Of a stretch of 64,000 nt of DNA, positions 10,837-26,178 are shown in pieces. The notes beneath the pieces are model-generated. The model worked only from the letters and a program-made list of their open reading frames with translations. It was not told the origin of the DNA and did not search any database. Within the stretch, counting starts at the first letter, position 1. Every line of letters starts with the position of its first letter. The stretch is from Anaerolineales bacterium (GTDB taxonomy: Bacteria; Chloroflexota; Anaerolineae; Anaerolineales; Villigracilaceae). Made by a program: the position numbers and the translations under genes. Where the stretch lies: assembly GCA_035283125.1 (NCBI GenBank), contig DATEUN010000020.1:6092-70091 (forward strand). The letters are read 5' to 3'.

Positions 10837-11475
10837 TCAACCGATAAAAACCTGGACCTTTTCACCGTCATCACCCTCGTCTACATTTACCACCAAGGGA
10901 TCGCTGGATTCGTGCAGGGCATCAATCATTTGATCTATGGGAACATTTTTTATTCCGTCGATGCTATTTCCGAAGTTTCGGAAGAACCAGGATGCCAAAC
11001 CGAGCGGCAACGGAAAGCCAAATCGTATCCTGCGAGGAAACTCACCTGGTTCCTGTTCAATGGAGACAAACAGCCAACGTGATGTTCTTGAGCTCCAACC
11101 CAACATGAGGATGAGAACTCCGAGGATCAATATTGGCAATCCAAGGCAATAGAATGATCCATTGAACCCTGCCAACGGCAGCATATTTCTGAACATGATC
11201 CAGCTTCCGATCGTGGTTATTGCAACCCCGATCCAAAATGGGATCATCCAAAGACTACGGGCTTTATCCATTGTTTTAGATATTCCAGGATCCTGTTCGG
11301 CAGGAGGAGGATCGATTACATCCGGATCCGGGGATGATGAAGCAGCAGGTCTCTGTCCAAACTCATCATTCGATGGTTGTTCATCCAACACCTGCATCAG
11401 GCGAAGTCCTTCCTCTGCGGAGATTTTTTCCTCCTGGATCATCTTCAGTATTTTGGATCGTTCATCAGATGTCAT
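10837..11475 (-). CDS. Membrane protein with N-terminal SHOCT-like helix (paralog of 10350-10733)
   Basis: N-terminus is SDERSKILKMIQEEKISAEEGLRLMQVL, followed by a Pro/Asp-rich linker and 3 predicted TM segments. C-terminus is ...VNVDEGDDGEKVQVFIG. Confidence 0.7.
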   Translation of the reverse strand: MTSDERSKILKMIQEEKISAEEGLRLMQVLDEQPSNDEFGQRPAASSSPDPDVIDPPPAEQDPGISKTMDKARSLWMIPFWIGVAITTIGSWIMFRNMLPLAGFNGSFYCLGLPILILGVLILMLGWSSRTSRWLFVSIEQEPGEFPRRIRFGFPLPLGLASWFFRNFGNSIDGIKNVPIDQMIDALHESSDPLVVNVDEGDDGEKVQVFIG

Positions 11476-11486
11476 TGTTATTCTCC

Positions 11487-12740
11487 TTATTCTTCAAGGG
11501 CAGCGAATAAACTTTCTGCTTCCTCAACACTGATCTTTTTTTCCTGGAGCATTCTAAGAATTGTCAACCGCTCATCGTCGCTAACCTTTGGTGCAGCAGG
11601 TTTCCTACCAGTGGAGAAATTGAAGATCTCAGTACCTCCGACAACTACCCTGCCAGAAGTTCCACGCCTGGCTCGAACCTCAGCTGCACGAACTCTTGCC
11701 TCAGCACGCCGCATTGCAGCTTCCACTTTTGCACTTGTTCGACGTGATATTCCTTCCGTACGCTTGTTCACCTTTTCAATGGCTTTTTGAACTTTCAGGT
11801 TAATTTTTTCGTTGAAATCACCTCTAAAGCCAGGTATTGGCGGGATTGGAGGTATGGGTGGAATCGGAGGAATGGGAGGTATCCCGGCAAAGTCTGACAT
11901 GCCCACACCAAAATCTGCAGCCGAACTCCATCGTTCGGATTTGTTTGTGACAACCAGGTCCCCACCAGCATTCAGGAAAAACTTCGCTGATCCATCACCC
12001 AGTGTTAAATCCTGGGTCGGACTGCCTTCAACAATCTCCACTCCAGGAATATCAACATGGAGAGAATCTTCATCGCCGCTCAATGTTGCCAGGTGCAACT
12101 CTGCATTGGCAGCAACTGGCAGGTGAAGGAGTAAATCTCCATCTGCAGTTACGCGACATTCCAAACCAGATTCAGGTATCAATTTCAATGCTGCATCTCC
12201 AGAAGTTGCTGCATTAATTGAACCTGCGATATTACTTAGAAAGAGATCCCCTTCCACCATTTCAAGGGTTACATTCCCTTCCACATCCCGGAGTGATGCA
12301 TCTCCCGATATGGATTTTGATGAACAATCTCCAGAACCATTATAGAGATTAAAATCACCGCTGACATCTCCCAATTCCACGCTGCCTACAAGCCGCAGCA
12401 TAACATCACCGGAAACATTATCAATGAATAAATTACTGGCTGAATTGATGGTCAAATCTCCAGATATATTCCCCATTTTGACTTCACTCATCATTGCCTG
12501 CAAGCCAACATCCCCGGAGATATCCCCAATTGTAAAGTTTGCCTGCCTTGGAAGGTAAAGGATGAGATCATCATCGCACGAGATCTCGAAAATGTTCTCG
12601 TTTGAGTCCACTACCAATTCTTCACCATTGGTCCTGGCCATGATCTCCGATCGATCCCAGCCTGCAACACGCAGGTCACCTGAGAGGTTTTCCAAGATTA
12701 TCTCGGATTCCGTATTTGCTTGTAAGATTTGCTGTTTCAT
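11487..12740 (-). CDS. DUF4097 beta-helix protein with (IPP)n linker, Arg-rich helix and C-terminal SHOCT-like helix
   Basis: More than 10 xSGD rungs (LSGDLRV, ISGDVGL, ISGDLTI, VSGDVML, VSGDFNL, ISGDASL...). Also IPPIPPIPPIPPIPPIP, RRAEARVRAAEVRARR, and the C-terminus DDERLTILRMLQEKKISVEEAESLFAALEE. Confidence 0.8.
   Translation of the reverse strand: MKQQILQANTESEIILENLSGDLRVAGWDRSEIMARTNGEELVVDSNENIFEISCDDDLILYLPRQANFTIGDISGDVGLQAMMSEVKMGNISGDLTINSASNLFIDNVSGDVMLRLVGSVELGDVSGDFNLYNGSGDCSSKSISGDASLRDVEGNVTLEMVEGDLFLSNIAGSINAATSGDAALKLIPESGLECRVTADGDLLLHLPVAANAELHLATLSGDEDSLHVDIPGVEIVEGSPTQDLTLGDGSAKFFLNAGGDLVVTNKSERWSSAADFGVGMSDFAGIPPIPPIPPIPPIPPIPGFRGDFNEKINLKVQKAIEKVNKRTEGISRRTSAKVEAAMRRAEARVRAAEVRARRGTSGRVVVGGTEIFNFSTGRKPAAPKVSDDERLTILRMLQEKKISVEEAESLFAALEE
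11833..11884 (-). repeat. In-frame 9-nt tandem repeat encoding (IPP)5-6
   Basis: The plus-strand ggNatNggN units (ggtattggc gggattgga ggtatgggt ggaatcgga ggaatggga ggtatc) translate on the minus strand to IPPIPPIPPIPPIPPIP. Confidence 0.9.
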
Positions 12741-12743
12741 TGA

Positions 12744-13127
12744 TCACTCCTCTCCTTCCAACAATCGTCGGGCAACATCCGCTGTGATGGTGCCTTCATC
12801 CAGATCCTGGAGGATCTTGAGGCGCTGCTCTGCAGATATTTCTTCTGTATCATCATCCTTTCCGGGTTCATAGCCCATTGCCCGGATCACTTCATGCAAT
12901 CTATTTCTAATGGTCGGATAAGACAAGTTCAACTCATCCTCCATGCGGTTTATCTTGCCTTCACAGCGAACAAATGTTTCCACAAAATCCAACTGCTCGA
13001 GGGTTAATCCAGGAAATGCTCCATTTGTGAAGCGGCCCTCAATGGTGGTGTCACAAGATGGGCAATACAAACGGGAAACCACAAGTTCACTATCACATAT
13101 GGGGCAGGCACTCAACGATTGTTTCAT
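12744..13127 (-). CDS. DUF2089 family Zn-ribbon/HTH protein with C-terminal SHOCT-like helix
   Basis: CPICDSEL...CPSCDTTIEGRF zinc ribbon and LTLEQLDFVETFVRCEGKINRMEDELNLSYPTIRNRL (DUF2089 HTH-like core). C-terminus is EQRLKILQDLDEGTITADVARRLLEGEE. Confidence 0.8.
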   Translation of the reverse strand: MKQSLSACPICDSELVVSRLYCPSCDTTIEGRFTNGAFPGLTLEQLDFVETFVRCEGKINRMEDELNLSYPTIRNRLHEVIRAMGYEPGKDDDTEEISAEQRLKILQDLDEGTITADVARRLLEGEE

Positions 13128-13441: not shown

Positions 13442-14161
13442 ATGGTCAGACCTCGAAAGGGAATCAACGAAAGGCATCAGAAGATCCTGGATTATCTTGG
13501 CAGGCGCCAGGAAAAACAAGGCTATCCCCCATCCATTCGTGAGATTGGAGAAGCAACCGGTATTTCTTCGACATCTGTTGTCACCTATTACTTAAAACAA
13601 CTGGAAGAGATGAACCTGATCGAGAGGGACCATAACGTTTCAAGAGGTGTACGACTTACAAACCAGGTTCAAAGGTCTTTCAACAAGGCAGCTCATGCAG
13701 TCAGTGATATTGCCTCAAGTATTCAAGAAATGCTAAGCATACCGGTACTTGGACGTATCGTCGCAGGAGAACCCATATCCACCCCCGCGTCTGATTTTAC
13801 ATACTTTGATGCTGAAAGTAATATCCAGATAGCGCGCAGCCTACTTTCTTCCAAGGAAAAAACAAGTGAGTTATTTGCACTTGAAGTTGAAGGAACATCC
13901 ATGATCGACGCAATGGTTAATGACGGCGATCTTGTCATTATGAAGAAAGCTGAAACTGCAAAAAACGGAGAAATGGTGGCGGTTTGGTTAAAAGCCAGCG
14001 ACCAGACTACATTAAAGTATTTTTACAAGGAACCCAAACGGATCCGTCTTCAACCTGCCAATCCGACCATGGATCCAATCTATGTTGACAGCTCAGCCGA
14101 TCTGATCATTCAGGGTAAGGTGGTTATGGTCATCAGGAAAGTTGATACCCTGGCTGCCTAG
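13442..14161 (+). CDS. lexA: LexA repressor
   Basis: N-terminal winged HTH (PPSIREIGEATGISSTSVVTYYLKQLE), cleavage site VAG|EP, catalytic GTSM and VIMKK, and C-terminal LQPANP. Confidence 0.95.
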   Translation: MVRPRKGINERHQKILDYLGRRQEKQGYPPSIREIGEATGISSTSVVTYYLKQLEEMNLIERDHNVSRGVRLTNQVQRSFNKAAHAVSDIASSIQEMLSIPVLGRIVAGEPISTPASDFTYFDAESNIQIARSLLSSKEKTSELFALEVEGTSMIDAMVNDGDLVIMKKAETAKNGEMVAVWLKASDQTTLKYFYKEPKRIRLQPANPTMDPIYVDSSADLIIQGKVVMVIRKVDTLAA

Positions 14162-16581: not shown

Positions 16582-18141
16582 ATGAATCCAGGAACCGTGC
16601 CCAGGCAAAATCTCAAGGGTGAAACTGAATCTTTCGACAGCAGCATTACCAACCTGCTCGAGGAAATAGAACTGTCCATTAAATGGGACCGCCCATCCAT
16701 ATTGCTTGCTGTTTACCACTCAGAAGTCATAGGGAGGCAGGCACAGTCTGCTCTCGAGAAACAAATCTTCTCACTTAGGTACAAGGTCACCCACATCAAA
16801 GTGGACAAGGAAAACTTCGATCTGGCCTGGTTTCTCTCTCAATTCGACCAGCATGAGCAGGTCGTTTTCTTTGTATCCGGTTTGAGGTGGGGAGGTGGAC
16901 GAAGCCGGACAAACGCCTATCAGGCATTGAATCTTCGCAGAGAACTATTCGTGAGCCAAAAAATTCGCATGGTGATTTGGTTGAATCCCGGGGAAGCGGT
17001 CAATCTTCCCATCCATGCCCCGGATTTCTGGGCTTTTCGTCATCGTGTGGTCGAATTTACAGATAAATCATCGCACCCAATCAATGAGTCACAAAAGGGA
17101 TACACAAATCCAATCACAAGACACGATCTACTCTCCTGGCGTGACTGGCAGATCAACGAAACAGCAGACAGGATCAATGAGAAGATCAAACTTAGGGAAT
17201 CTCTCCTGGCTGGCATGCCTGTCAGTGATTCATCACTGTTCATGCGAACCGAACTGATGTATACACTTGCTTTCCTTTATTGGAATAAAGGCAGGTTTGA
17301 CAAGGCAGAGAACTACCTGGAACAAGCACTTGTTCTAACGCGTTTCCCGGATGGTATTTCCATGAAATCGAAACTCCAGGTTGCGACAGGAATTCTGTAC
17401 CATGACCAGGGTGATCTTGAGAAAGCCATCCAGCGATACAAAAAAGCTCTTGAAACTAACCGGGATTATTCTCATGGTTGGAATAATCTTGGCAGGGCAT
17501 ACCTGGATTCAGGGCACAGGGAGGAAGCACTTGAAGCTTACAATCGATCTGTCAAGCTCGATCCCAGGAATGCGAACGCCTGGAATAATCTTGGGAATTA
17601 TTACAGGTTGAATGGAGAATTCCAAAAAGGAGTTGATGCTTACAAAAAAGCTTCCAGGTTCGAATCCCTTCTTGATATCCCATTGATCAATATCGCATCT
17701 GCATATCTTGATCTTGGACAACCAGATAAAGCCATCCGGGCATTAAAAAAAGCAAACCGAAGTGATCCATCCAATGTTGTTACCCTTATGAAACTGGGTA
17801 ATATTTACCATGGCATGAATCGATTCAAAGATGCCAGGACTGCATACAGCAATGCGAACAAAGAAGATCCTTCTTATTTCCCTGCATACATCGGTTTGAT
17901 CGCATGCGATATAGCAATGAAAAAACCTCGATCAGCCAAGAAACACATCTCCCAGGCGCTTCCTTTCCTTGCAAACCAAAATGAATTGCTGCAGGCAGAA
18001 TTTGAAACACAACGAGGAGATGACGAGAAGGCTGGCAAACTGTTAAAGAGAGCATTACAGAAAAACCTTACCACGATCCAGGAAGTTGATCGAAACCCTT
18101 TTCTATATTCGTTGCGAGAACATGACCTTTCATCTACTTAG
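16582..18141 (+). CDS. TPR-repeat protein with ~140-aa N-terminal module shared with 22623-26141
   Basis: TPR units (YWNKGRFDKAENYLEQAL, GDLEKAIQRYKKALETN, GHREEALEAYNRSVKLDP, GEFQKGVDAYKKA...). N-terminal residues about 24-160 are paralogous to the second TPR gene. Confidence 0.8.
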   Translation: MNPGTVPRQNLKGETESFDSSITNLLEEIELSIKWDRPSILLAVYHSEVIGRQAQSALEKQIFSLRYKVTHIKVDKENFDLAWFLSQFDQHEQVVFFVSGLRWGGGRSRTNAYQALNLRRELFVSQKIRMVIWLNPGEAVNLPIHAPDFWAFRHRVVEFTDKSSHPINESQKGYTNPITRHDLLSWRDWQINETADRINEKIKLRESLLAGMPVSDSSLFMRTELMYTLAFLYWNKGRFDKAENYLEQALVLTRFPDGISMKSKLQVATGILYHDQGDLEKAIQRYKKALETNRDYSHGWNNLGRAYLDSGHREEALEAYNRSVKLDPRNANAWNNLGNYYRLNGEFQKGVDAYKKASRFESLLDIPLINIASAYLDLGQPDKAIRALKKANRSDPSNVVTLMKLGNIYHGMNRFKDARTAYSNANKEDPSYFPAYIGLIACDIAMKKPRSAKKHISQALPFLANQNELLQAEFETQRGDDEKAGKLLKRALQKNLTTIQEVDRNPFLYSLREHDLSST

Positions 18142-18195
18142 TTAATAAAGAGAATTTATGATCCAATTGGGATTTTTAAAACAACACGAGGGTTA

Positions 18196-20370
18196 ATGAA
18201 TTTTTACCAGGCTGCCACAAGCATCTTCATGCTGGGAATGACCATCATAATTGCATGGTCCACATTTAAAAAGAGACATGCACGCTGTTCGGCACCTTTG
18301 ATGTCATTCTCCATCGGCCTGGCAGCCTGGGCCATACTTTACGCCCTCAGTTCAATAATTACCCAGAAATATGTGTATACCTGGCTGGGGATCATGTACC
18401 TGGTCGCTAACCTGACCCGCCTATCATTATTCGTTTTTGCAATCAATTATTCTGACACAGCCAATTGGTTGAACAAGCGAACGCTTGCCATTCTCCTGAT
18501 AGAACCTTTCACAACTCTTGGTATTCTTCTAACCAATCCCTGGCATGGTTTCTTTTTTGCACGGATCACGCGGGAAATCCTGGGAAGAACGGTATCGTTT
18601 GGACCGTGGTTCTGGATCACGACCGTATATAATTTTTGCCTGCTATTAGCCACGATCCTGATCCTTGGTCAAACCTACCTGAAACCATCCAGGACCAATC
18701 GAAGCGTATCCGGGTTACTATTTCTTGGCATGTTGGCTCCCTTGGTTCTATATATCGCGACCATGGCAGGTTCCGAAATCATTCCCGGCGCCGACCTCTC
18801 CCCTATCATTTTCTTGGTACCGAGCCTGACCATCATCATAGGCCTGCTTCGAAATGATCTTCTTGATTATTCCATTCAATCACGAGACAGGGTCATTGAA
18901 GTCATGAACGACGGCTGGATGGTTCTGGATGAAAATAACAATGTGATCGATATCAATCCGTTTGCAGAAACCTTGATTGGACGTACACGTCAGCAAGTAT
19001 TTGGCTTGCCTGTCAAATCAGTACTATCAGAATGGTCCAACCTGCTCAACATCGTGGATAATCCAACCATTGTGTTGGACACTAACTTCAGTGTTGAGAT
19101 CAATAACTCCTGGCGGTATATCAACATGCGGGTTCTACCGATCATTAACAATGGAAATGAAACCAGCGGTCATGTTATCAACTGGCGGGACATGACCGAT
19201 CAAAAGAAAGTTGAAGATTCGCGTAAACAAACCAGGGATGACCAGTTCTTATTAATTCGCGGACTGGCCAACGCAGCCAGTGAAGCGCCTGACCTGGAAT
19301 ATTTCTTTTCAGAATCCATATACCTGGTTATGTCCATTTTCCAAAGCCAGACACTTTGTTTGTTCCTCTTGGATGATGAAATGAAGGAGGGAGATCCATT
19401 CCGATTATCCCTTGTCCACCAGGTTGGATTGAACCCCATGACAGCCCGAAACCTATTGCACTTGAAGATTGAAGAAAGCCTGCCGGGTTCTTTGTACCAT
19501 GCAGTCCTGGAACGAAAAGGCACTTACATTTCCCCAAACATGGAAGTGGACCGATCCATCCCGGATGAGATCAAAGACCTGGGACCAGGTTCATTGATCA
19601 TTTCTGCCTTAAGATCAAACAACCAATTATTGGGGATGGTTTGCCAGGTACGAAGAATACCTGGAGACTATTCAACGGAAGACAGAATGCGTTTCCAATT
19701 TGTTATCGATGATATATCAAACTTCATCTACAATGACCGCCAACGTCAGTTGGCGATTGGCCTGGCTGAAAGGTCCCGGCTGGTTCGTGATCTGCATGAT
19801 TCTGTGACGCAGAAACTTTATGGTCTTCTTGCATTGACAGAAGCAGCCCAGGCAGGGCTGGAAATGGGATCAATGGAAATGAGCAAGAAAGTCCTCACAC
19901 CAATTGGTGAACATGCCAGGCAGGCATTGAAGGAAATGAGGTTATTCCTTTATGAATTGAGTCCATCCAACCTTAAGAAAGATGGATTGATAGCAACATT
20001 GAACCAGCGTTTGGATGCCGTTGAAGGAAGAGCTGATATGAAACGGAAGATCATATCGGATGATGACATTTACCTTACCAACGAACAACAGGTGGCATTC
20101 TATTACATCGCCCAGGAAGCATTGAACAATACGCTAAGGCACGCCCATGCCAAATCCGTACAGATATCCTTGAAACAAACTGAAAATGACATTATCATGG
20201 AGATTGAAGATGATGGCATCGGTTTTGATACCACCAAACAAGAGAAAGGTGGAATAGGGAGCCGAAGCATGCAGGAACGCAGTGAACAAATCGGTGCGAA
20301 ACTCGAAATATTTTCAAAACCCGGAGAAGGAACGAGGGTAGTCCTTAAAATGAAGAAGAATGGAGGATAA
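18196..20370 (+). CDS. Sensor histidine kinase: N-terminal 7TM region, PAS, GAF-like, HisKA_3, HATPase_c
   Basis: About 7 TM segments, a PAS-like DRVIEVMNDGWMVLDENNNVIDINPFAE, H-box LVRDLHDSVTQKLYGL (NarX/LiaS type), N-box EALNNTLRHA, and DDGIGF...GGIGSRSMQER. Confidence 0.9.
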   Translation: MNFYQAATSIFMLGMTIIIAWSTFKKRHARCSAPLMSFSIGLAAWAILYALSSIITQKYVYTWLGIMYLVANLTRLSLFVFAINYSDTANWLNKRTLAILLIEPFTTLGILLTNPWHGFFFARITREILGRTVSFGPWFWITTVYNFCLLLATILILGQTYLKPSRTNRSVSGLLFLGMLAPLVLYIATMAGSEIIPGADLSPIIFLVPSLTIIIGLLRNDLLDYSIQSRDRVIEVMNDGWMVLDENNNVIDINPFAETLIGRTRQQVFGLPVKSVLSEWSNLLNIVDNPTIVLDTNFSVEINNSWRYINMRVLPIINNGNETSGHVINWRDMTDQKKVEDSRKQTRDDQFLLIRGLANAASEAPDLEYFFSESIYLVMSIFQSQTLCLFLLDDEMKEGDPFRLSLVHQVGLNPMTARNLLHLKIEESLPGSLYHAVLERKGTYISPNMEVDRSIPDEIKDLGPGSLIISALRSNNQLLGMVCQVRRIPGDYSTEDRMRFQFVIDDISNFIYNDRQRQLAIGLAERSRLVRDLHDSVTQKLYGLLALTEAAQAGLEMGSMEMSKKVLTPIGEHARQALKEMRLFLYELSPSNLKKDGLIATLNQRLDAVEGRADMKRKIISDDDIYLTNEQQVAFYYIAQEALNNTLRHAHAKSVQISLKQTENDIIMEIEDDGIGFDTTKQEKGGIGSRSMQERSEQIGAKLEIFSKPGEGTRVVLKMKKNGG

Positions 20371-20371
20371 C

Positions 20372-21040
20372 ATGGAGAAAATTCGAATACTGATCGTGGA
20401 TGACATGACAGTTATCCGGGAAGGATTGATGGCAATTCTATCCTTTTTCCCTGACCTTGAAGTGGTTGGACAGGCAGAAGATGGTTTGGAAGCGGTGGAA
20501 AAAGCCAGGGAATTGAAACCAGATGTTATCCTGCTGGACCTGGTAATGCCCAAGCAAAATGGATTGAAGACCATCCCCCAGCTGCTTGAGATCAAGCCAA
20601 AACCAAATATCCTGGTAGTTACATCTTTTGCAGAAGACGAACTTGTGTTTCCGGCAATCAAAGCAGGTGCACTTGGCTACCTGCTCAAGGATTTCGAGCG
20701 GGATAACCTGGTCCAATCGATCCGCGATGTGAACAGAGGCCAGGCGTCACTGGCTCCATCAATTGCCCTGAAGGTCATCCAGGAATTCAACAATCCTGAA
20801 GAAGCTTCCCTTCCCCAGGATGCCTTAACTTCAAGAGAATTGGATACGCTGCGCCTGATCGCACGAGGCTACAGCAACCAGGAAATCGCCAATGAGCTTG
20901 TTATCCAGGAACGGACTGTAGCCAAATATGTGAGCTCCATTTTAACCAAGATTCACGTGGAGAATCGAACCAAGGCTGCCCTCTATGCGCTGCGGCAAGG
21001 CATTTCTGAACTTGAGGTAAATCCAAAACTGGATCAATAA
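20372..21040 (+). CDS. NarL/FixJ (LuxR-type) response regulator
   Basis: REC domain with canonical residues (IVDD, ILLDLVMP, VVTSF, YLLKD) and LuxR HTH (LTSRELDTLRLIARGYSNQEIANEL). ATG 20372 is preceded by GGAGGA; the tracked start at 20360 lies inside the SD. Confidence 0.95.
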   Translation: MEKIRILIVDDMTVIREGLMAILSFFPDLEVVGQAEDGLEAVEKARELKPDVILLDLVMPKQNGLKTIPQLLEIKPKPNILVVTSFAEDELVFPAIKAGALGYLLKDFERDNLVQSIRDVNRGQASLAPSIALKVIQEFNNPEEASLPQDALTSRELDTLRLIARGYSNQEIANELVIQERTVAKYVSSILTKIHVENRTKAALYALRQGISELEVNPKLDQ

Positions 21041-21060
21041 TCCAACTTAAAAATCTCTCG

Positions 21061-21104
21061 GAAAGCATCCCGGATATAAACACAGGGATGCTTTCTTGTT
21101 TTTC
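21061..21104 (+). terminator. Rho-independent terminator after the response regulator
   Basis: gaaagcatccc / gggatgctttc 11-bp stem followed by ttgtttttc. Confidence 0.8.
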
Positions 21105-21113
21105 TGTAAATAG

Positions 21114-21151
21114 TGGTCATTCTTGACCAATAAAAAGAACCCGGATGGTCA
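21114..21151. promoter_or_regulatory. Candidate operator: TGGTCA-N4-TGACCA palindrome plus a third TGGTCA half-site
   Basis: TGGTCA at 21114-21119, TGACCA at 21124-21129, TGGTCA at 21146-21151. It lies between the RR terminator and the AAA+ gene. Confidence 0.3.
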
Positions 21152-21308
21152 AATTCTGCCAATCCAGCCTCTCTAGAAAGGCATATTTCCTTCATTTCCC
21201 CCCAGCCCATAGATAGATATACTGATTTCAGGCACCACCGTAGGAATGAAACGGTGATGGATCATTTAATGATTATCGAAAAAAGGATCTCGTCTCTCAG
21301 CACCATTT

Positions 21309-22601
21309 ATGGATCGACTTGAGGAAGAAATGATCGATTTTGAATACATCACAGCAAAGGATTTTGACAGGGCATGGCTGAATTTTGAACTGGACCTGCC
21401 TCTCAAACCCGGGAAGGATGGGAAAGACAATCCATTCTATATCAATCGACCCGGCAATCCGATTGCTGAGCTTGAAGATGCTTTACTTTCGCCCTTCTAT
21501 CAACCACCTAAATTCTTCTTCTCAGGGCATCGTGGTTGTGGAAAATCGACTGAATTGCTGCACCTGATGAGTAATCCGGATATCCAGAGTAAATTCTGGA
21601 CCATAAATTTCAGCATTCGTGACGAAGCGGACATCATTGACCTGGATTTTAGAGATATTCTCTTATCCATAGGCGGGCGAATGTTCCGTGAATACAAAAA
21701 AAATGGAGGGAAATTACCGGAGCAGTTACTCAAAGAATTGAATACCTGGCGCGGGAAATTAGAAGAAGAGATTAAAACCATCAAAGGGATGCCAGTTGCC
21801 CTCGAGTTGGAAGGTGGAATAGAAGCCTTCTTTGTTCAAACTGGATTAAAGATGAAAATGGAACCGAAGACCCGTAAAGAGATCCGTCAGGTCTTCGAAA
21901 GGGATATCACAGGTCTGATCGCTGTAATCAACAACATCGCCATGGCAATTTATGGAAAAGAGAAACGAATTCCCCTGATTCTTATCGACGACCTGGATAA
22001 ACCGGAACTTCAAAAAGCCCGCGAGATCTTCCATGATCATAGGGAGATCATGATGCAGCCAAATTGCGCCATTGTTTATACGGTTTCGAGCGCCTTGTTT
22101 TACAACAAGAACTTTGACTCAATCCGAGACAGGGCAATATTCCTTCCCAATATCGAACTGCATCCAAGGTTAAAACCCAATGTCAATAACGACCAGGGTT
22201 ATAAAACCATGAAGAATTTTATCACCCAAAGAATGGCGCCAGAATTGATCGAACCCTCTGCAATAAACCAGGCCATAACCTACAGCGGTGGCGTTTTCAG
22301 GGAGCTTGCTCGTATCATGCGCACGGCTATCGGTCAGGCACGTCGCCGAAAAACCATCCGTATAGAAATGGAAGACGTGGAATATGCAGCCACCGAAATG
22401 AGAAATGAATACCGTCGTATCCTTGAAAAAGAGGACATAGCCATCCTTAAGAAGGTACAGGTCACCAACCAACTGGAATACAGCGAACGACTGACCCCCC
22501 TGCTTCAATTGTTGGCCATGCTGGAATATCGTAACGGTGAAAACTGGTGCGATGTTCACCCAGTTCTTCGCAAGATTTTGAACAATGATGGTTCCCTGTA
22601 A
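21309..22601 (+). CDS. ORC/Cdc6-like AAA+ (STAND-related) P-loop ATPase
   Basis: Walker A GHRGCGKST (21525-21551), Walker B LILIDDLDK, sensor-1-like strand AIVYTVSS, and a lid helix GGVFRELARIMRTA resembling the Cdc6/ORC GDAR motif. An alternative start at 21330 has a better SD (GAGGA). Confidence 0.75.
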   Translation: MDRLEEEMIDFEYITAKDFDRAWLNFELDLPLKPGKDGKDNPFYINRPGNPIAELEDALLSPFYQPPKFFFSGHRGCGKSTELLHLMSNPDIQSKFWTINFSIRDEADIIDLDFRDILLSIGGRMFREYKKNGGKLPEQLLKELNTWRGKLEEEIKTIKGMPVALELEGGIEAFFVQTGLKMKMEPKTRKEIRQVFERDITGLIAVINNIAMAIYGKEKRIPLILIDDLDKPELQKAREIFHDHREIMMQPNCAIVYTVSSALFYNKNFDSIRDRAIFLPNIELHPRLKPNVNNDQGYKTMKNFITQRMAPELIEPSAINQAITYSGGVFRELARIMRTAIGQARRRKTIRIEMEDVEYAATEMRNEYRRILEKEDIAILKKVQVTNQLEYSERLTPLLQLLAMLEYRNGENWCDVHPVLRKILNNDGSL

Positions 22602-22622
22602 GAATCGAAAGGGTAGAAGTAG

Positions 22623-25600
22623 ATGAAAATAAAACCCACGAATGCTGTAGCAATCGACAACAATAAACTCGATGATCGGGTTGATATTCTATTCAGGGAA
22701 TTAGAGCTTGCAATTCGATGGAAACGTCCTTCCATCCTGTTGGCTGTTTTTAGCTCCACCAACAACCATGGTGACATAAAAACGATCCTAAAGAATCGCC
22801 TGCATGGAGTCGGACAGGATGTTCACTCATTAAGGCTTGATGATGAAATTTCTTCAGATCTCCCCAATTATTTAACCAACCTTCCAAACCTTGATCAAAA
22901 GGTTATCTTTGTAGAAGGGTTTAATGGGGGTGGAAGAGAAAAGAACATCGAAGCTTACCGCTACTTGAATATCAGCAGGGATTATTTCATTAATCGAAAG
23001 GTAAGAGTTGTTTTCTGGTTGACATCAGAAGAAGCCAATGACCTGGCTCGATATTCACCTGAATTCTGGGGGTTCAGGCATCGAGTGGTCGAGTTTCTCG
23101 ATTTGCACGATCCGAAGCAATCACCTTTGCACTCGCTTGGTACTGTCTGGCAGGGAATTGGCGAATTTTCCAATGGAATGGATGAGGTCGATGAAAAGAT
23201 CTCTTTGAGAAATTCGATCCTGGCAGACCTTCCCGATATGGACGAATCCACTTCAGCACGAGCAAACCTGTTTATATCCCTGGGAGTTCTTTACTGGCGC
23301 AAGGGAGAGATGGAAAAAGCGATTGGGAATTCCAAAAAAGCTCTCGAACTTGCTTCAAAATTGGACAATAAATGGTTTGAAGCTTTTTGTTACAACTCCA
23401 TGGCACTCATCCATGCGAACACAGGCAAAGTGAGCGAATCAATTGAAGCGTTGGAACATGCCGTTGAATTGGTACCTGACCAATATTTTCCGTTGAACAA
23501 TCTTGGCAACCTATTCAGCGAACTCGATCGATTTGATGAAGCGATGGTCGCTTTTCGAACAGTCATACAGAGGAATCCCCGAGATCCAATGAGCCTTAAT
23601 GGAATGGGTACTGTATATTACAGGCAAGGCAAAACCAAGGAAGCCTATCGGAATTTCACCCAAGCAATCCAGGCAGCCCCTACGTTCGCTCATCCATGGA
23701 TCGGTCTTGGAAATATCTATAACAGCCAAAACCAGACCGAAGCTGCCATTTCTGCATATCAGAAAGCCATTGATCTAGATCGACACCTGGCATTACCGTG
23801 GATCAATATTGGGAGTCTTTTCGAAAAGCTAAACCGCCTTGATGATGCCGCTCAAGCATTTCAAAATGCTTTCGACCTTGATCCCACCAATCCTGTCACC
23901 TGGAATGCACAGGGAAAGATCTATATGAATACAGGTTGTTTTGATGAAGCTGTCTGTGCATTTGAAAAATCCATTGACCTGGACCATGGAAATGGGTGGT
24001 CATATGTCAACCTGGCACAAACATATGTTTGTAAAGGTAAATACGACGAAGCCATAAAACTCTACCATCAAAGCATCCGTCTTTTTAAAACCAGAACTGA
24101 GAAGGCGATCACATGGAGCAAACTTGGGAATATCTACCAGTTAAAGAATGATATTCAGAATGCCATCGCAGCCAAGAAAATTGCCCTTGAACTCGACCCC
24201 GATAATGAACATCTCAAGAATGAGCTCTTTGAGATCCATAATTCATTGAAATCATCCAGCGAACCAGGAGATCCAAATTCATACCCATTACCTGAGATGG
24301 AACATATAGCGTTAGGTAGATTCCTGCAAGGATCAACCCTGGTAAATCAAGGGCTCAATGGTTCAATAAATATTGGACCGGAAGTTACTTATCCGCAGGA
24401 CAGCTCGCCAAATTCAGCCTTTACCTGGAATGAAATAGGGAATAAACATTTAAATAAAATGGAACTTGGAAAGGCAAAAAGAGCCTACCAAAAAGCCATT
24501 GAACTTGATGAACATTACGGATGGCCTTATGCCAATCTTGCTTCGATCTCGGTGAAGCAGGAAAGATTTGAGAAGGCACTTCCCTTGTACCATCAGAGCC
24601 TTCGCCATTTAAAAACAAGATGGGAGAAAGCTGTCATCTGGAACCGGCTTGGAAATATCTACCGAAAACAAAATGATTTTAAAAAGGCGATTCAAGCCCA
24701 TCGGAAAGCTTTGGAGCTTGACCCGAAAAATATCCCTGCACTGCAGGATCTAGTTCGTATCCACAACGACCTGGAACAAGTCAGGGATACGATATCACAA
24801 TTAGCCAACAGCCTGGATAAAGCTGTTGCCTGGGATATGCTGGGAAATGCTTACCTTTCATTAAGTGATTATGAATCTTCCGTAGATGCTTTCCAGCATG
24901 CCGTTGATCTTGCTCCTAATGATTTTGCTTATCGCTTTGACCTGGAGGAAGCTCGGAAAGCATGCGATAATCAACTAAATCGGTCGAGGAAACATAAGAA
25001 GTCATCCGGAAACACCTGGATCCAGAAGCTTCTTCAAGCTTTGCAGGGAAAGGATATTTTTCCATCATTACGAATTTCCCATCCAGGACCTCTGGGTGAG
25101 TTGATAGACCTGGATCCTGGTTATAGTGAAAACAAGGATATTCAAATTGAAAAGAAGGGACAAGGTAAGCCATCGTCTGGTTTTCCCATTGGCGGACCTT
25201 CAACAAACAAATCCAACCCTTTAAGCAAGACAAACATCTCTGCCGATGAATCCCAGGAAGGGTCATTCTCAATACCTCCTTTTCTCCAGAAATTAACTTC
25301 CGGGGTTCAGGATTTGTGGCGAATGAGCGGCAAAACCGATGAGTTCCCTGCTACAAAGGTAGGTACAAACCCGAATCGGGAGCATAAATTAATCTCGAAT
25401 TTTCATGATGCAGAACTTGTCACCATCGGATCAGGTCTGGGTCAGGGTCAGATCATGCTTTCTCCGGGAACATCACCACGTCAATCTGCCAATAACATGG
25501 TACCGGTTTATGGTAAGTCAAACAAACTAGTTTCTGTATCAAAGCCAACGGTGGGAGATACCGTGATGAAAACCCCTCCCTGGGAACAGAAGATTGATCC

Positions 25601-26141
25601 AATAAGAGTTGAACGGGATATACTCCGTTACCAGACAGTCACCAGCATCAACCCTCAGAATGCACGTGCATGGTATACCCTTGGTGACTTATATCGATCG
25701 GTTGGCAGGTTGGAAGAATCAGTTTCAGCTCTTGAGAAGGCTGCAAGTATAGACCCGAGCAAGGAAGTGTACTTATATCATCTCGGTAAGGCATATGCTG
25801 CCCAATTCAGAATCGATGATGCAATTGAAACTTTCAAGAAAGTGATTGCAATCAATCCACAGTATTCCCTGGCGCACGCTACCCTGGCTGGTTTTTACCA
25901 TACCCTCGGAAAAAAACGGGAATACCGCCAACACATGTCAATTGCTAGGGAAGCCATCAAAGACGAAAATGATTACAACCGAGCCTGCCTGGAAGCATTA
26001 TGCGGAAATGCAGAGGATTCCGTAGCCCTTCTAAAAACAGCATTGCAGGAAAAACAGGTGACCATGGAATGGGTTGCACGGGACCCGGATTTTGATGGCA
26101 TCCGCAACGAACAAATCTTTATTGATCTTGTGAAAAATTGA
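22623..26141 (+). CDS. Large TPR-repeat protein (1172 aa) with shared N-terminal module and long disordered linker
   Basis: More than 15 TPR units (e.g. GKTKEAYRNFTQAIQAAP, NQTEAAISAYQKAIDLD, GRLEESVSALEKAASIDP). N-terminal residues about 22-160 are paralogous to 16582-18141. Confidence 0.85.
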   Translation: MKIKPTNAVAIDNNKLDDRVDILFRELELAIRWKRPSILLAVFSSTNNHGDIKTILKNRLHGVGQDVHSLRLDDEISSDLPNYLTNLPNLDQKVIFVEGFNGGGREKNIEAYRYLNISRDYFINRKVRVVFWLTSEEANDLARYSPEFWGFRHRVVEFLDLHDPKQSPLHSLGTVWQGIGEFSNGMDEVDEKISLRNSILADLPDMDESTSARANLFISLGVLYWRKGEMEKAIGNSKKALELASKLDNKWFEAFCYNSMALIHANTGKVSESIEALEHAVELVPDQYFPLNNLGNLFSELDRFDEAMVAFRTVIQRNPRDPMSLNGMGTVYYRQGKTKEAYRNFTQAIQAAPTFAHPWIGLGNIYNSQNQTEAAISAYQKAIDLDRHLALPWINIGSLFEKLNRLDDAAQAFQNAFDLDPTNPVTWNAQGKIYMNTGCFDEAVCAFEKSIDLDHGNGWSYVNLAQTYVCKGKYDEAIKLYHQSIRLFKTRTEKAITWSKLGNIYQLKNDIQNAIAAKKIALELDPDNEHLKNELFEIHNSLKSSSEPGDPNSYPLPEMEHIALGRFLQGSTLVNQGLNGSINIGPEVTYPQDSSPNSAFTWNEIGNKHLNKMELGKAKRAYQKAIELDEHYGWPYANLASISVKQERFEKALPLYHQSLRHLKTRWEKAVIWNRLGNIYRKQNDFKKAIQAHRKALELDPKNIPALQDLVRIHNDLEQVRDTISQLANSLDKAVAWDMLGNAYLSLSDYESSVDAFQHAVDLAPNDFAYRFDLEEARKACDNQLNRSRKHKKSSGNTWIQKLLQALQGKDIFPSLRISHPGPLGELIDLDPGYSENKDIQIEKKGQGKPSSGFPIGGPSTNKSNPLSKTNISADESQEGSFSIPPFLQKLTSGVQDLWRMSGKTDEFPATKVGTNPNREHKLISNFHDAELVTIGSGLGQGQIMLSPGTSPRQSANNMVPVYGKSNKLVSVSKPTVGDTVMKTPPWEQKIDPIRVERDILRYQTVTSINPQNARAWYTLGDLYRSVGRLEESVSALEKAASIDPSKEVYLYHLGKAYAAQFRIDDAIETFKKVIAINPQYSLAHATLAGFYHTLGKKREYRQHMSIAREAIKDENDYNRACLEALCGNAEDSVALLKTALQEKQVTMEWVARDPDFDGIRNEQIFIDLVKN

Positions 26142-26178
26142 AAACGCAACCAAACCCTCTCGTAGAGAGGGGAAAAAA

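Follow-up and report, generated by a model that had tools for sequence, protein, structure and literature searches.

The stretch of Anaerolineales DNA analyzed here (64,000 nucleotides, referred to as the window; all positions are those of the whole stretch) carries a cluster of five genes, encoding a TPR protein (TPR1), a sensor histidine kinase, a NarL-family response regulator, an AAA+ ATPase and a second TPR protein (TPR2), with the two TPR proteins sharing an N-terminal domain that is termed here the N-module (Table 1). As judged from its relatives, the cluster is real, vertically inherited and conserved across Anaerolineales, and within it the pair formed by the ATPase gene and an N-module/TPR gene is, on the same comparisons, an ancient two-gene core. 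The cluster represents ORC/STAND-type AAA+ signaling for which the literature searched holds no description, and it comprises two unnamed protein families. The interpretation favored below, to which we assign an even chance of being correct, is that of a split STAND-like nucleotide switch that is under two-component control and possibly tied to the cell envelope. The five open reading frames, all on the plus strand, were recovered where a first-pass annotation of the sequence had placed them, and its view that the five genes together resemble no described system is borne out by PADLOC, Pfam, NCBIfam, PHROGs and the searched literature, none of which gives a description. L and P numbers denote loci of relatives and proteins of the family, respectively.

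Conservation of the cluster and its ATPase/N-module core

When each GTDB species was represented by one genome and scanned with 12 of the closer ATPase sequences as the query, a relative was found on at least 560 contigs. The locus counts given here derive from the best 80 of these contigs, almost all from Anaerolineales and distinct at the species level, in which open reading frames were called and compared with the window proteins by phmmer. A gene for an N-module protein of the downstream or 'D-type' (TPR2 in the window) lies directly 3' of the ATPase gene in 72 of 80 loci, and its start overlaps the ATPase stop by 8 nucleotides (32 loci), 4 nucleotides (11 loci) or 11 nucleotides (9 loci), which suggests translational coupling. 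The kinase, the regulator and a gene for an N-module protein of the upstream or 'U-type' (TPR1 in the window) are found together, upstream, in 37 of 48 Anaerolineales loci. The first-pass annotation had made its proposal depend on the five genes keeping company in other genomes, and they do co-localize across many species.

In the most divergent Anaerolineales loci (56–60% identity) only the pair of ATPase and N-module genes is kept. The same pair recurs in five distant contexts in which ATPase identity has fallen to 26–35%: the N-module gene abuts or overlaps the ATPase stop in all five, its product being recognized with E-values of 1e-14 to 1e-26 and usually continuing into TPRs, and these contexts contain no kinase, regulator or MraZ gene. 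One distant cluster with a named source comes from Zixibacteria. Also significant are relatives in which the two partners are fused, either as ATPase, N-module and TPR in one protein (P0155) or as N-module followed by ATPase (P0214 and P0264); P0155 and P0139 are rare relatives that hold the NTPase and TPRs in a single chain, and in the P0155 locus a kinase and two successive regulator genes stand directly upstream of the fused gene. The suggestion of the first-pass annotation that a STAND-type protein is here split over separate genes is supported by the fused P0155, P0214 and P0264 and by the persistence of the ATPase/N-module gene pair at 26–35% identity.

The ATPase is a predicted ORC/Cdc6-STAND-like protein

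Both nucleotide-binding motifs of the ATPase are intact (Walker A, GHRGCGKST; Walker B, LILIDDLDK), and in an alignment of 47 family members G66, G71 and K72 are invariant and D221 is nearly so. The open reading frame of 430 residues reported earlier is confirmed, but translation most likely starts at the ATG at 21330, which is preceded by the ribosome-binding site GAGGA and gives a protein of 423 residues, as in homologs; family members are nearly all about 410–440 residues long. The AlphaFold2 model (pLDDT 92, pTM 0.90) consists of an AAA+ base, a lid with a sensor-2-like 'GGVFRE' and a highly conserved C-terminal winged-helix region, i.e. the nucleotide-binding domain, helical lid and winged helix of the NOD architecture, together with a large helical insert at approximately residues 107–211. 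Its best fold match in the PDB is archaeal Orc1/Cdc6 (2qby_A, E 1e-7), followed by eukaryotic ORC/Cdc6, TnsC, RuvBL, RdrA and Apaf-1. The model thus characterizes the protein as a Cdc6/ORC-STAND-like AAA+ ATPase with P-loop base, lid and winged helix, in agreement with the earlier description of a Cdc6-like ATPase that has neither repeats nor an effector domain of its own; in fact, the window protein contains no sensor repeats and ends after the winged helix, the TPRs being encoded by separate genes.

The family is large and without a name. More than 1300 close relatives share 70–92% identity with the window protein, those with a named source coming from Chloroflexi/Anaerolineales metagenome-assembled genomes, and an exhaustive search with a limit of E ≤ 1e-3 yielded 2500 clusters at 50% identity, 228 of which have E ≤ 1e-30. 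No Pfam or NCBIfam model reaches its cutoff with the window ATPase, the only match being AAA_14 (20 bits against a cutoff of 27), and this includes the curated STAND models (NACHT, NB-ARC, AAA_16, nSTAND). Among the 47 family members, sub-threshold matches are found to AAA_16 (32 of 47), nSTAND5 (5) and NACHT (3), as well as to AAA_22, KAP, ATPase_2, ORC-CDC6-like and 'Sll1717 family' models. The ORC/Cdc6 models TIGR02928 and PF24389 give weak matches in 11 and 5 of the 47 members, respectively, and none for the window protein. Searches of PDB sequences with the ATPase, the N-module and both profiles returned only P-loop noise.

The N-module is a predicted pseudo-ATPase domain

TPR1 and TPR2 show strong TPR matches (Pfam, NCBIfam) from about residue 215 onward and align with each other from about residue 7 (BLASTP, 4e-58 overall). 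The N-terminal paralogy described in the first-pass annotation is therefore real, although the module proper comprises the first ~165 residues (E 3e-29 for this part alone against the other TPR protein) rather than ~230, and the similarity continues through a linker into the TPRs. Some U-type proteins of relatives consist of an N-module standing alone (142–180 residues), which identifies it as an independent domain, and the U-type and D-type modules form separate clades, indicating that the duplication is old and that both copies have been retained. No Pfam match was found for 30 N-module sequences, searches of PADLOC, PHROGs and PDB sequences were equally without a match to the module, and it was not seen in any further type of fusion.

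The AlphaFold2 model of the N-module (pLDDT 80) is a five-stranded α/β domain with the αβα core typical of AAA+ proteins. It has 30 PDB matches at E ≤ 1e-3, and the matches listed are AAA+ cores, with Orc2/Orc3 on top and ClpC, Rpt, DnaC, RuvB and Hda also among them (TMq 0.43–0.55). Neither a Walker A (GxxxxGK[ST]) nor a Walker B motif (hhhhD[DE]) is present in the aligned sequences (30 to 41), and the module is for this reason regarded as a pseudo-ATPase; its strand β1 reads 'RPSILLAVY' and is followed by 'xSxxxR', and β3 is 'VFFVxGL'. AAA+ proteins carry their arginine finger between β4 and β5. The N-module has there the segment 'APDFWAFRHRV', in which W149, R152, H153 and R154 are invariant, and this FRHR motif may contribute to the ATPase site as an arginine finger. 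The possibility that the N-module is a recent duplicate of the core of the ATPase itself was ruled out by a comparison of the two profiles, which was not significant (probability 1.4%).

According to its predicted fold, then, the N-module is a catalytically dead AAA+-like α/β domain with Orc2/Orc3 as its closest counterparts. The first-pass annotation had taken it for an uncharacterized module through which the system might exert its output, a view that is here revised: as a degenerate AAA+-like core it would most likely form the interface to the ATPase and serve as a coupling domain between the ATPase and the TPR proteins, not as an output.

The two-component system and its candidate operator

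The window kinase contains HisKA_7TM (E 1.5e-35), PAS, HisKA_3 and HATPase_c domains (Pfam, NCBIfam). HisKA_3 and HATPase_c of the kinase and the receiver and GerE domains of the regulator all lie above their Pfam cutoffs, as is characteristic of NarL-type systems. The domain assignments made earlier for the TPR proteins, kinase, regulator and ATPase hold up in Pfam and NCBIfam, with the GAF domain of the kinase alone being marginal (E 0.019, under the cutoff; kinase orthologs likewise give weak GAF matches). The kinase stop and the regulator start overlap by 11 nucleotides. Among relatives, the U-type gene is directly 5' of the kinase in 37 of 48 loci, all 37 loci with kinase, regulator and U-type gene also carry a paralog of MraZ, and 17 of 48 possess a second, paralogous regulator. 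Since the distant ATPase/N-module pairs and 11 of 48 Anaerolineales loci are without a two-component system, the latter lies outside the ancestral core and is a lineage-specific addition in Anaerolineales.

The regulator gene is followed by a strong intrinsic terminator (−20.2 kcal/mol, z −5.3; none of 200 shuffles folds as well), as had been proposed. A second proposed terminator, 3' of TPR2, is weak, since the hairpin there is followed on the plus strand by an A-run instead of a T-run. A 16-bp sequence that is perfectly palindromic, TGGTCATTCTTGACCA, lies ten nucleotides 3' of the regulator terminator; the window has no other site of this kind apart from a degenerate second copy near 21146–21162. 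In 33 of 66 loci the corresponding consensus, TGGTCATTWATGACCA, precedes the mraZ-like gene by approximately 145–155 bp, and in 21 of 82 a second copy of the element precedes the ATPase gene by approximately 100–160 bp, against a background of 0.03 matches expected per 300-bp window. Of 40 loci with the cluster regulator, 25 have the palindrome, as against 1 of 10 loci without the regulator (Fisher p 0.004, phylogeny not corrected for), and the palindrome is invariant in the alignment of the window with L090 and L001. That the site is a chance match was considered, since 30 of 100 shuffles of the window give at least one match with at most one mismatch; its positional conservation across species rules this out.

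Palindromic GerE-type operators, for example the DosR/DevR-type boxes, are known from NarL/HisKA_3 two-component systems, and a 16-bp palindrome of this kind suits a dimeric GerE-type regulator. It is most likely through the conserved element TGGTCATTWATGACCA that the NarL-type regulator acts on transcription of the ATPase operon. Transcription driven by the NarL regulator had been named in the first-pass annotation as a likely output of the system; in the revised assignment the two-component system probably acts, via this candidate operator, as an input to the ATPase operon rather than as an output.

The MraZ paralog and the reduced form of the cluster in the window

In 64 of 75 loci the ATPase operon is headed by a gene of the MraZ family, which lies within 2.6 kb on the 5' side of the ATPase gene. 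This gene is a paralog and not the canonical mraZ, which in L045 is paired with rsmH at another site. The ATPase operon of the window is not headed by an MraZ gene, and an MraZ pseudogene in the 269-bp spacer between regulator and ATPase was rejected because no remnant was detected there. The regulator-to-ATPase spacer of the window (21041–21329) and of L090 (the closest relative, with 92% ATPase identity and the same deletion) aligns with the regulator-to-mraZ-like spacer of L001 (9197–10000), the same operator and promoter blocks being recognizable in both. These shared blocks, and the absence of any remnant, indicate that the MraZ paralog was cleanly deleted in the lineage of the window; from the alignment, the retained promoter and operator blocks now appear to drive the ATPase directly in the window and L090.

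In one subclade (20 loci; for example L054, 8396–9919, and L029, 8847–9980), the gene for a GH25 muramidase with SH3b domains separates the MraZ paralog from the ATPase gene. TPR genes come in a row of two or three in most relatives. A single condensed TPR protein is encoded instead in the window, L001, L003 and L010, with both the N-module and the conserved TPR_END_plus C-terminus being kept; in TPR2 three TPR blocks (approximately residues 212–530, 603–805 and 987–1172) are separated by linkers poor in repeats (approximately 530–600 and 800–985). The window is hence an atypical, reduced version of the cluster. Given that the MraZ paralog, and in a quarter of loci GH25-SH3b, head the ATPase operon in relatives, the physiological output that is most likely, if only weakly indicated by this gene content, would be remodeling of the cell envelope, division or the filament. 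A literature search on MraZ in Anaerolineae returned nothing relevant.

Other genes accompany the cluster in some relatives. Genes for an Mrr-like nuclease and an IS200/Y1 transposase-like protein are located just 5' of the U-type gene in 16 and 12 loci, respectively, the distant fused locus L088 included (L067, 3522–4373; L020, 2905–3450; L088, 2620–3991). In 20 loci (for example L015, 7281–8633) the TPR genes are followed by one for a conserved protein of ~450 residues that Pfam does not match and whose hydrophobic stretches resemble membrane spans. Counterparts of GH25, Mrr, the Y1 transposase and the ~450-residue membrane protein were found nowhere in the window.

Proposed mechanism and alternative explanations

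In the mechanism proposed for a split STAND-like switch, the N-module would dock on the ATPase as a neighboring protomer would, comparable to Orc2/Orc3 beside Orc1, and the FRHR motif, at the arginine-finger position, may feed into the ATPase site. Binding and hydrolysis of ATP would gate the assembly or release of the TPR scaffolds, with a STAND/NLR-type switch being divided over two or three polypeptides. In Anaerolineales the second N-module paralog, TPR1, would be joined to this switch in an operon with the 7TM-PAS kinase and the NarL-type regulator, and the latter would control the ATPase operon via TGGTCATTWATGACCA.

Several observations weigh against this interpretation. The fold matches of the N-module are of modest TM-score (0.45–0.55), and its profile has no significant similarity to that of the ATPase. 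A recognizable palindrome is lacking in 15 of the 40 regulator-bearing loci, the two-component system itself is missing from 11 of 48 Anaerolineales loci and from all distant loci sampled, and its operon is separated from the ATPase operon by the strong terminator. The window carries neither MraZ nor GH25, which makes the link to the cell wall an indirect one. Lastly, P0332 (L089, 8001–10679) unites the ATPase with EAD8 and PNP_UDP_1 domains and has NACHT and PNP genes as neighbors, and P0210 carries a fused AAA_21/AAA_15 ATPase, architectures which suggest that the wider ATPase family has been recruited into conflict-type systems.

A more specific and bolder proposal, which we consider rather unlikely, is that the products form an ORC-like hetero-oligomer of one active Cdc6/ORC AAA+ subunit and two dead, TPR-armed AAA+-like subunits which, controlled by the 7TM kinase and the NarL regulator, would govern septation or cell-wall remodeling in the filamentous Anaerolineales. 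If true, the pair of ATPase and pseudo-AAA+ protein would be a widespread and unnamed class of split STAND-like switch.

A defense role for the cluster is less probable again. Such an anti-phage or conflict system of the STAND/NLR type would sense an invader protein with its TPR arms, whereupon the ATPase would oligomerize and an effector encoded nearby or elsewhere would kill or arrest the cell. The ATPase does fall in the ORC/STAND neighborhood, with sub-threshold AAA_16, NACHT, nSTAND5 and KAP matches among its family; the P0332 and P0210 fusions and two possible effectors of relatives, the GH25-SH3b lysin inside the operon (20 loci) and the Mrr-type nuclease upstream (16 loci), point in the same direction. 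Anaerolineae are filamentous. Conflict systems of this sort are reported to be enriched in multicellular bacteria (Kaur et al., 2020; PMC7159879), which again fits a role in defense. However, PADLOC returned no system-level match for the cluster (generic TPR matches only, and none below E 0.01 for the ATPase and the N-modules), no effector is encoded in the window, no relatives were found on viral contigs, and PHROGs gave no meaningful match, the weak one obtained being to a MuB-like transposition protein. Unlike patchy, fast-evolving defense genes, the ATPase is about as conserved as core metabolic enzymes: identity to the L001 counterparts is 82% for the ATPase and 87% for the regulator, against 80% for LexA and 84–89% for Por subunits, with the TPR proteins (54–55%) and the kinase (61%) diverging faster. 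In addition, the ATPase is present on at least 560 species-representative contigs, the best 80 being almost all from Anaerolineales, and the cluster is embedded in flanking genes common to the close relative L001.

No likelier than defense is the view that two independent units happen to be syntenic, with TPR1, kinase and regulator forming an ordinary two-component system and the ATPase and TPR2 acting separately from it without cross-talk. The terminator between both units would be expected on this view, as would the distant pairs and the 11 of 48 Anaerolineales loci that do without a two-component system, and the outer flanks of the cluster are likewise syntenic in L001. Against this stands the identity of the head gene of the two-component operon, which bears the same rare N-module as the partner of the ATPase, a module seen in no other fusion context. 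Moreover, 37 of 48 species keep the units side by side, a linkage that extends to ATPases of ~65% identity, with the outer flanks varying; the palindrome at the ATPase-operon promoter and the cluster regulator tend to occur in the same loci; and the fused P0155 locus retains its kinase-regulator-regulator set directly upstream.

A DNA-directed ORC-like factor, whose winged helix would bind DNA, possibly the palindrome, in the control of replication, the chromosome or transcription and to which the TPR proteins would be accessory, is very improbable: its best fold matches are DNA-bound Orc1/Cdc6, TnsC and RuvBL, its winged-helix region is highly conserved and it has the weak PHROG match to a MuB-like protein, yet no replication genes are linked to the ATPase in 80 loci, winged helices in STAND proteins, as is established for that family, make contacts between domains instead of binding DNA, and the palindrome tracks the NarL-type regulator and not the ATPase, which is in every locus.

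Comparison with known systems

Like the STAND NTPases (NLR-like proteins, MalT, AfsR, Apaf-1 and Avs), the ATPase belongs to the ORC/Cdc6 clade of P-loop NTPases, combines a base with a lid and a winged helix, and is associated with TPR arrays, in P0155 and P0139 even within one chain and in P0332 with EAD8 and a nucleosidase effector. It differs from them in that NTPase and TPR sensor are separate genes in the window, with no effector domain, and in that the place of the helical arm of STAND proteins, at the junction of NTPase and TPRs, is occupied by a dead AAA+-like domain. The ATPase reaches the cutoff of none of the curated STAND models, and the cluster appears vertically inherited and strongly constrained, not patchy. 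The best structural match of the ATPase (Orc1/Cdc6) and that of the N-module (Orc2/Orc3) both belong to the archaeal and eukaryotic ORC-Cdc6 proteins, and these offer a precedent for one active AAA+ subunit that works with catalytically degenerate AAA+-like partners. In contrast to these, sequence identity amounts to 10–15% and TM-scores to 0.45–0.55, the ATPase has its large helical insert (~107–211), the N-module is fused to TPRs and lacks lid and winged helix, no link to replication genes is seen, and no ORC/Cdc6 model is above cutoff.

An inactive NTPase-like scaffold beside an active AAA+ ATPase is also known from the MoxR-vWA ternary systems of multicellular bacteria including Chloroflexi, where it is represented by iSTAND and iSTAND2 (PMC7159879, PMC8195603). 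The arrangement described here is similar in this respect and differs in that neither MoxR nor vWA is present, the inactive module is a short α/β core only, and the active partner is ORC/STAND-like. The ATPase/N-module family is not mentioned in Kaur et al. 2020/2021 (PMC7159879, PMC8195603), in the Kaur/Aravind papers on conflict systems or in a 2026 STAND survey.

With other NarL/HisKA_3 systems the cluster shares a HisKA_3 kinase and a receiver-GerE regulator encoded by overlapping genes, and a perfect 16-bp palindrome in the neighboring promoter; its sensor, by contrast, has a HisKA_7TM input, its operon starts with an N-module protein, and the operator is a candidate. As in MraZ-led dcw operons, the ATPase operon opens with an MraZ-family gene in 64 of 75 relatives, and in 20 loci a gene for a peptidoglycan hydrolase comes after it. 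The difference is that the cluster gene is a paralog, the canonical mraZ-rsmH pair of L045 being located elsewhere, and that the window and L090 have lost it.

Neither the ATPase family nor its obligate partner domain has a Pfam or NCBIfam model, and naming both would annotate thousands of 'hypothetical' proteins. Should the N-module prove to dock on the ATPase as a dead AAA+ protomer, it would follow that STAND/NLR-type switches can be built in trans by means of a pseudo-ATPase adaptor, which would bear on the evolution of NLR-like architectures from ORC/Cdc6-like ancestors. The proposed path from kinase to regulator, palindrome and ATPase operon would provide a concrete circuit for the control of filament growth or division in Anaerolineales, filamentous organisms that are abundant in digesters and sediments, for which there is almost no genetics and in which the cluster is strongly constrained.

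Features of the locus and its surroundings

Table 1. Position and character of the cluster genes and of the signals between them.
Feature	Position	Strand	Description
TPR1, upstream ('U-type') N-module protein	16582–18141	+	519 aa; N-module ~16582–17076, TPR array ~residues 215–500
Sensor histidine kinase	18196–20370	+	724 aa; HisKA_7TM, PAS, marginal GAF, HisKA_3, HATPase_c
NarL-family response regulator	20360–21040	+	226 aa; Response_reg receiver and GerE helix-turn-helix
Intrinsic terminator 3' of regulator	21060–21104	+	12-bp stem followed by UUGUUUUU; folding compared with shuffles
Perfect 16-bp palindrome TGGTCATTCTTGACCA, candidate operator of the ATPase operon	21114–21129	.	Sole match in the window; cross-species conservation
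Conserved promoter and leader of the ATPase operon	21130–21329	+	Homologous to the L001 mraZ-like promoter; blocks include GATATACT
AAA+ ATPase, unnamed ORC/Cdc6-STAND-like family	21330–22601	+	Mechanical open reading frame 21309–22601, 430 aa
TPR2, downstream ('D-type') N-module protein	22623–26141	+	1172 aa; N-module 22623–23117
Hairpin 3' of TPR2, weak terminator candidate	26155–26171	.	Without U-tract on the plus strand

An Rfam search of the region gave no match. Upstream of the cluster, on the minus strand (10837–13127), are the genes for a DUF2089 protein (zinc ribbon and helix-turn-helix) and for two SHOCT-like/DUF4097 'toastrack' proteins, after which the LexA gene comes next (13442–14161).

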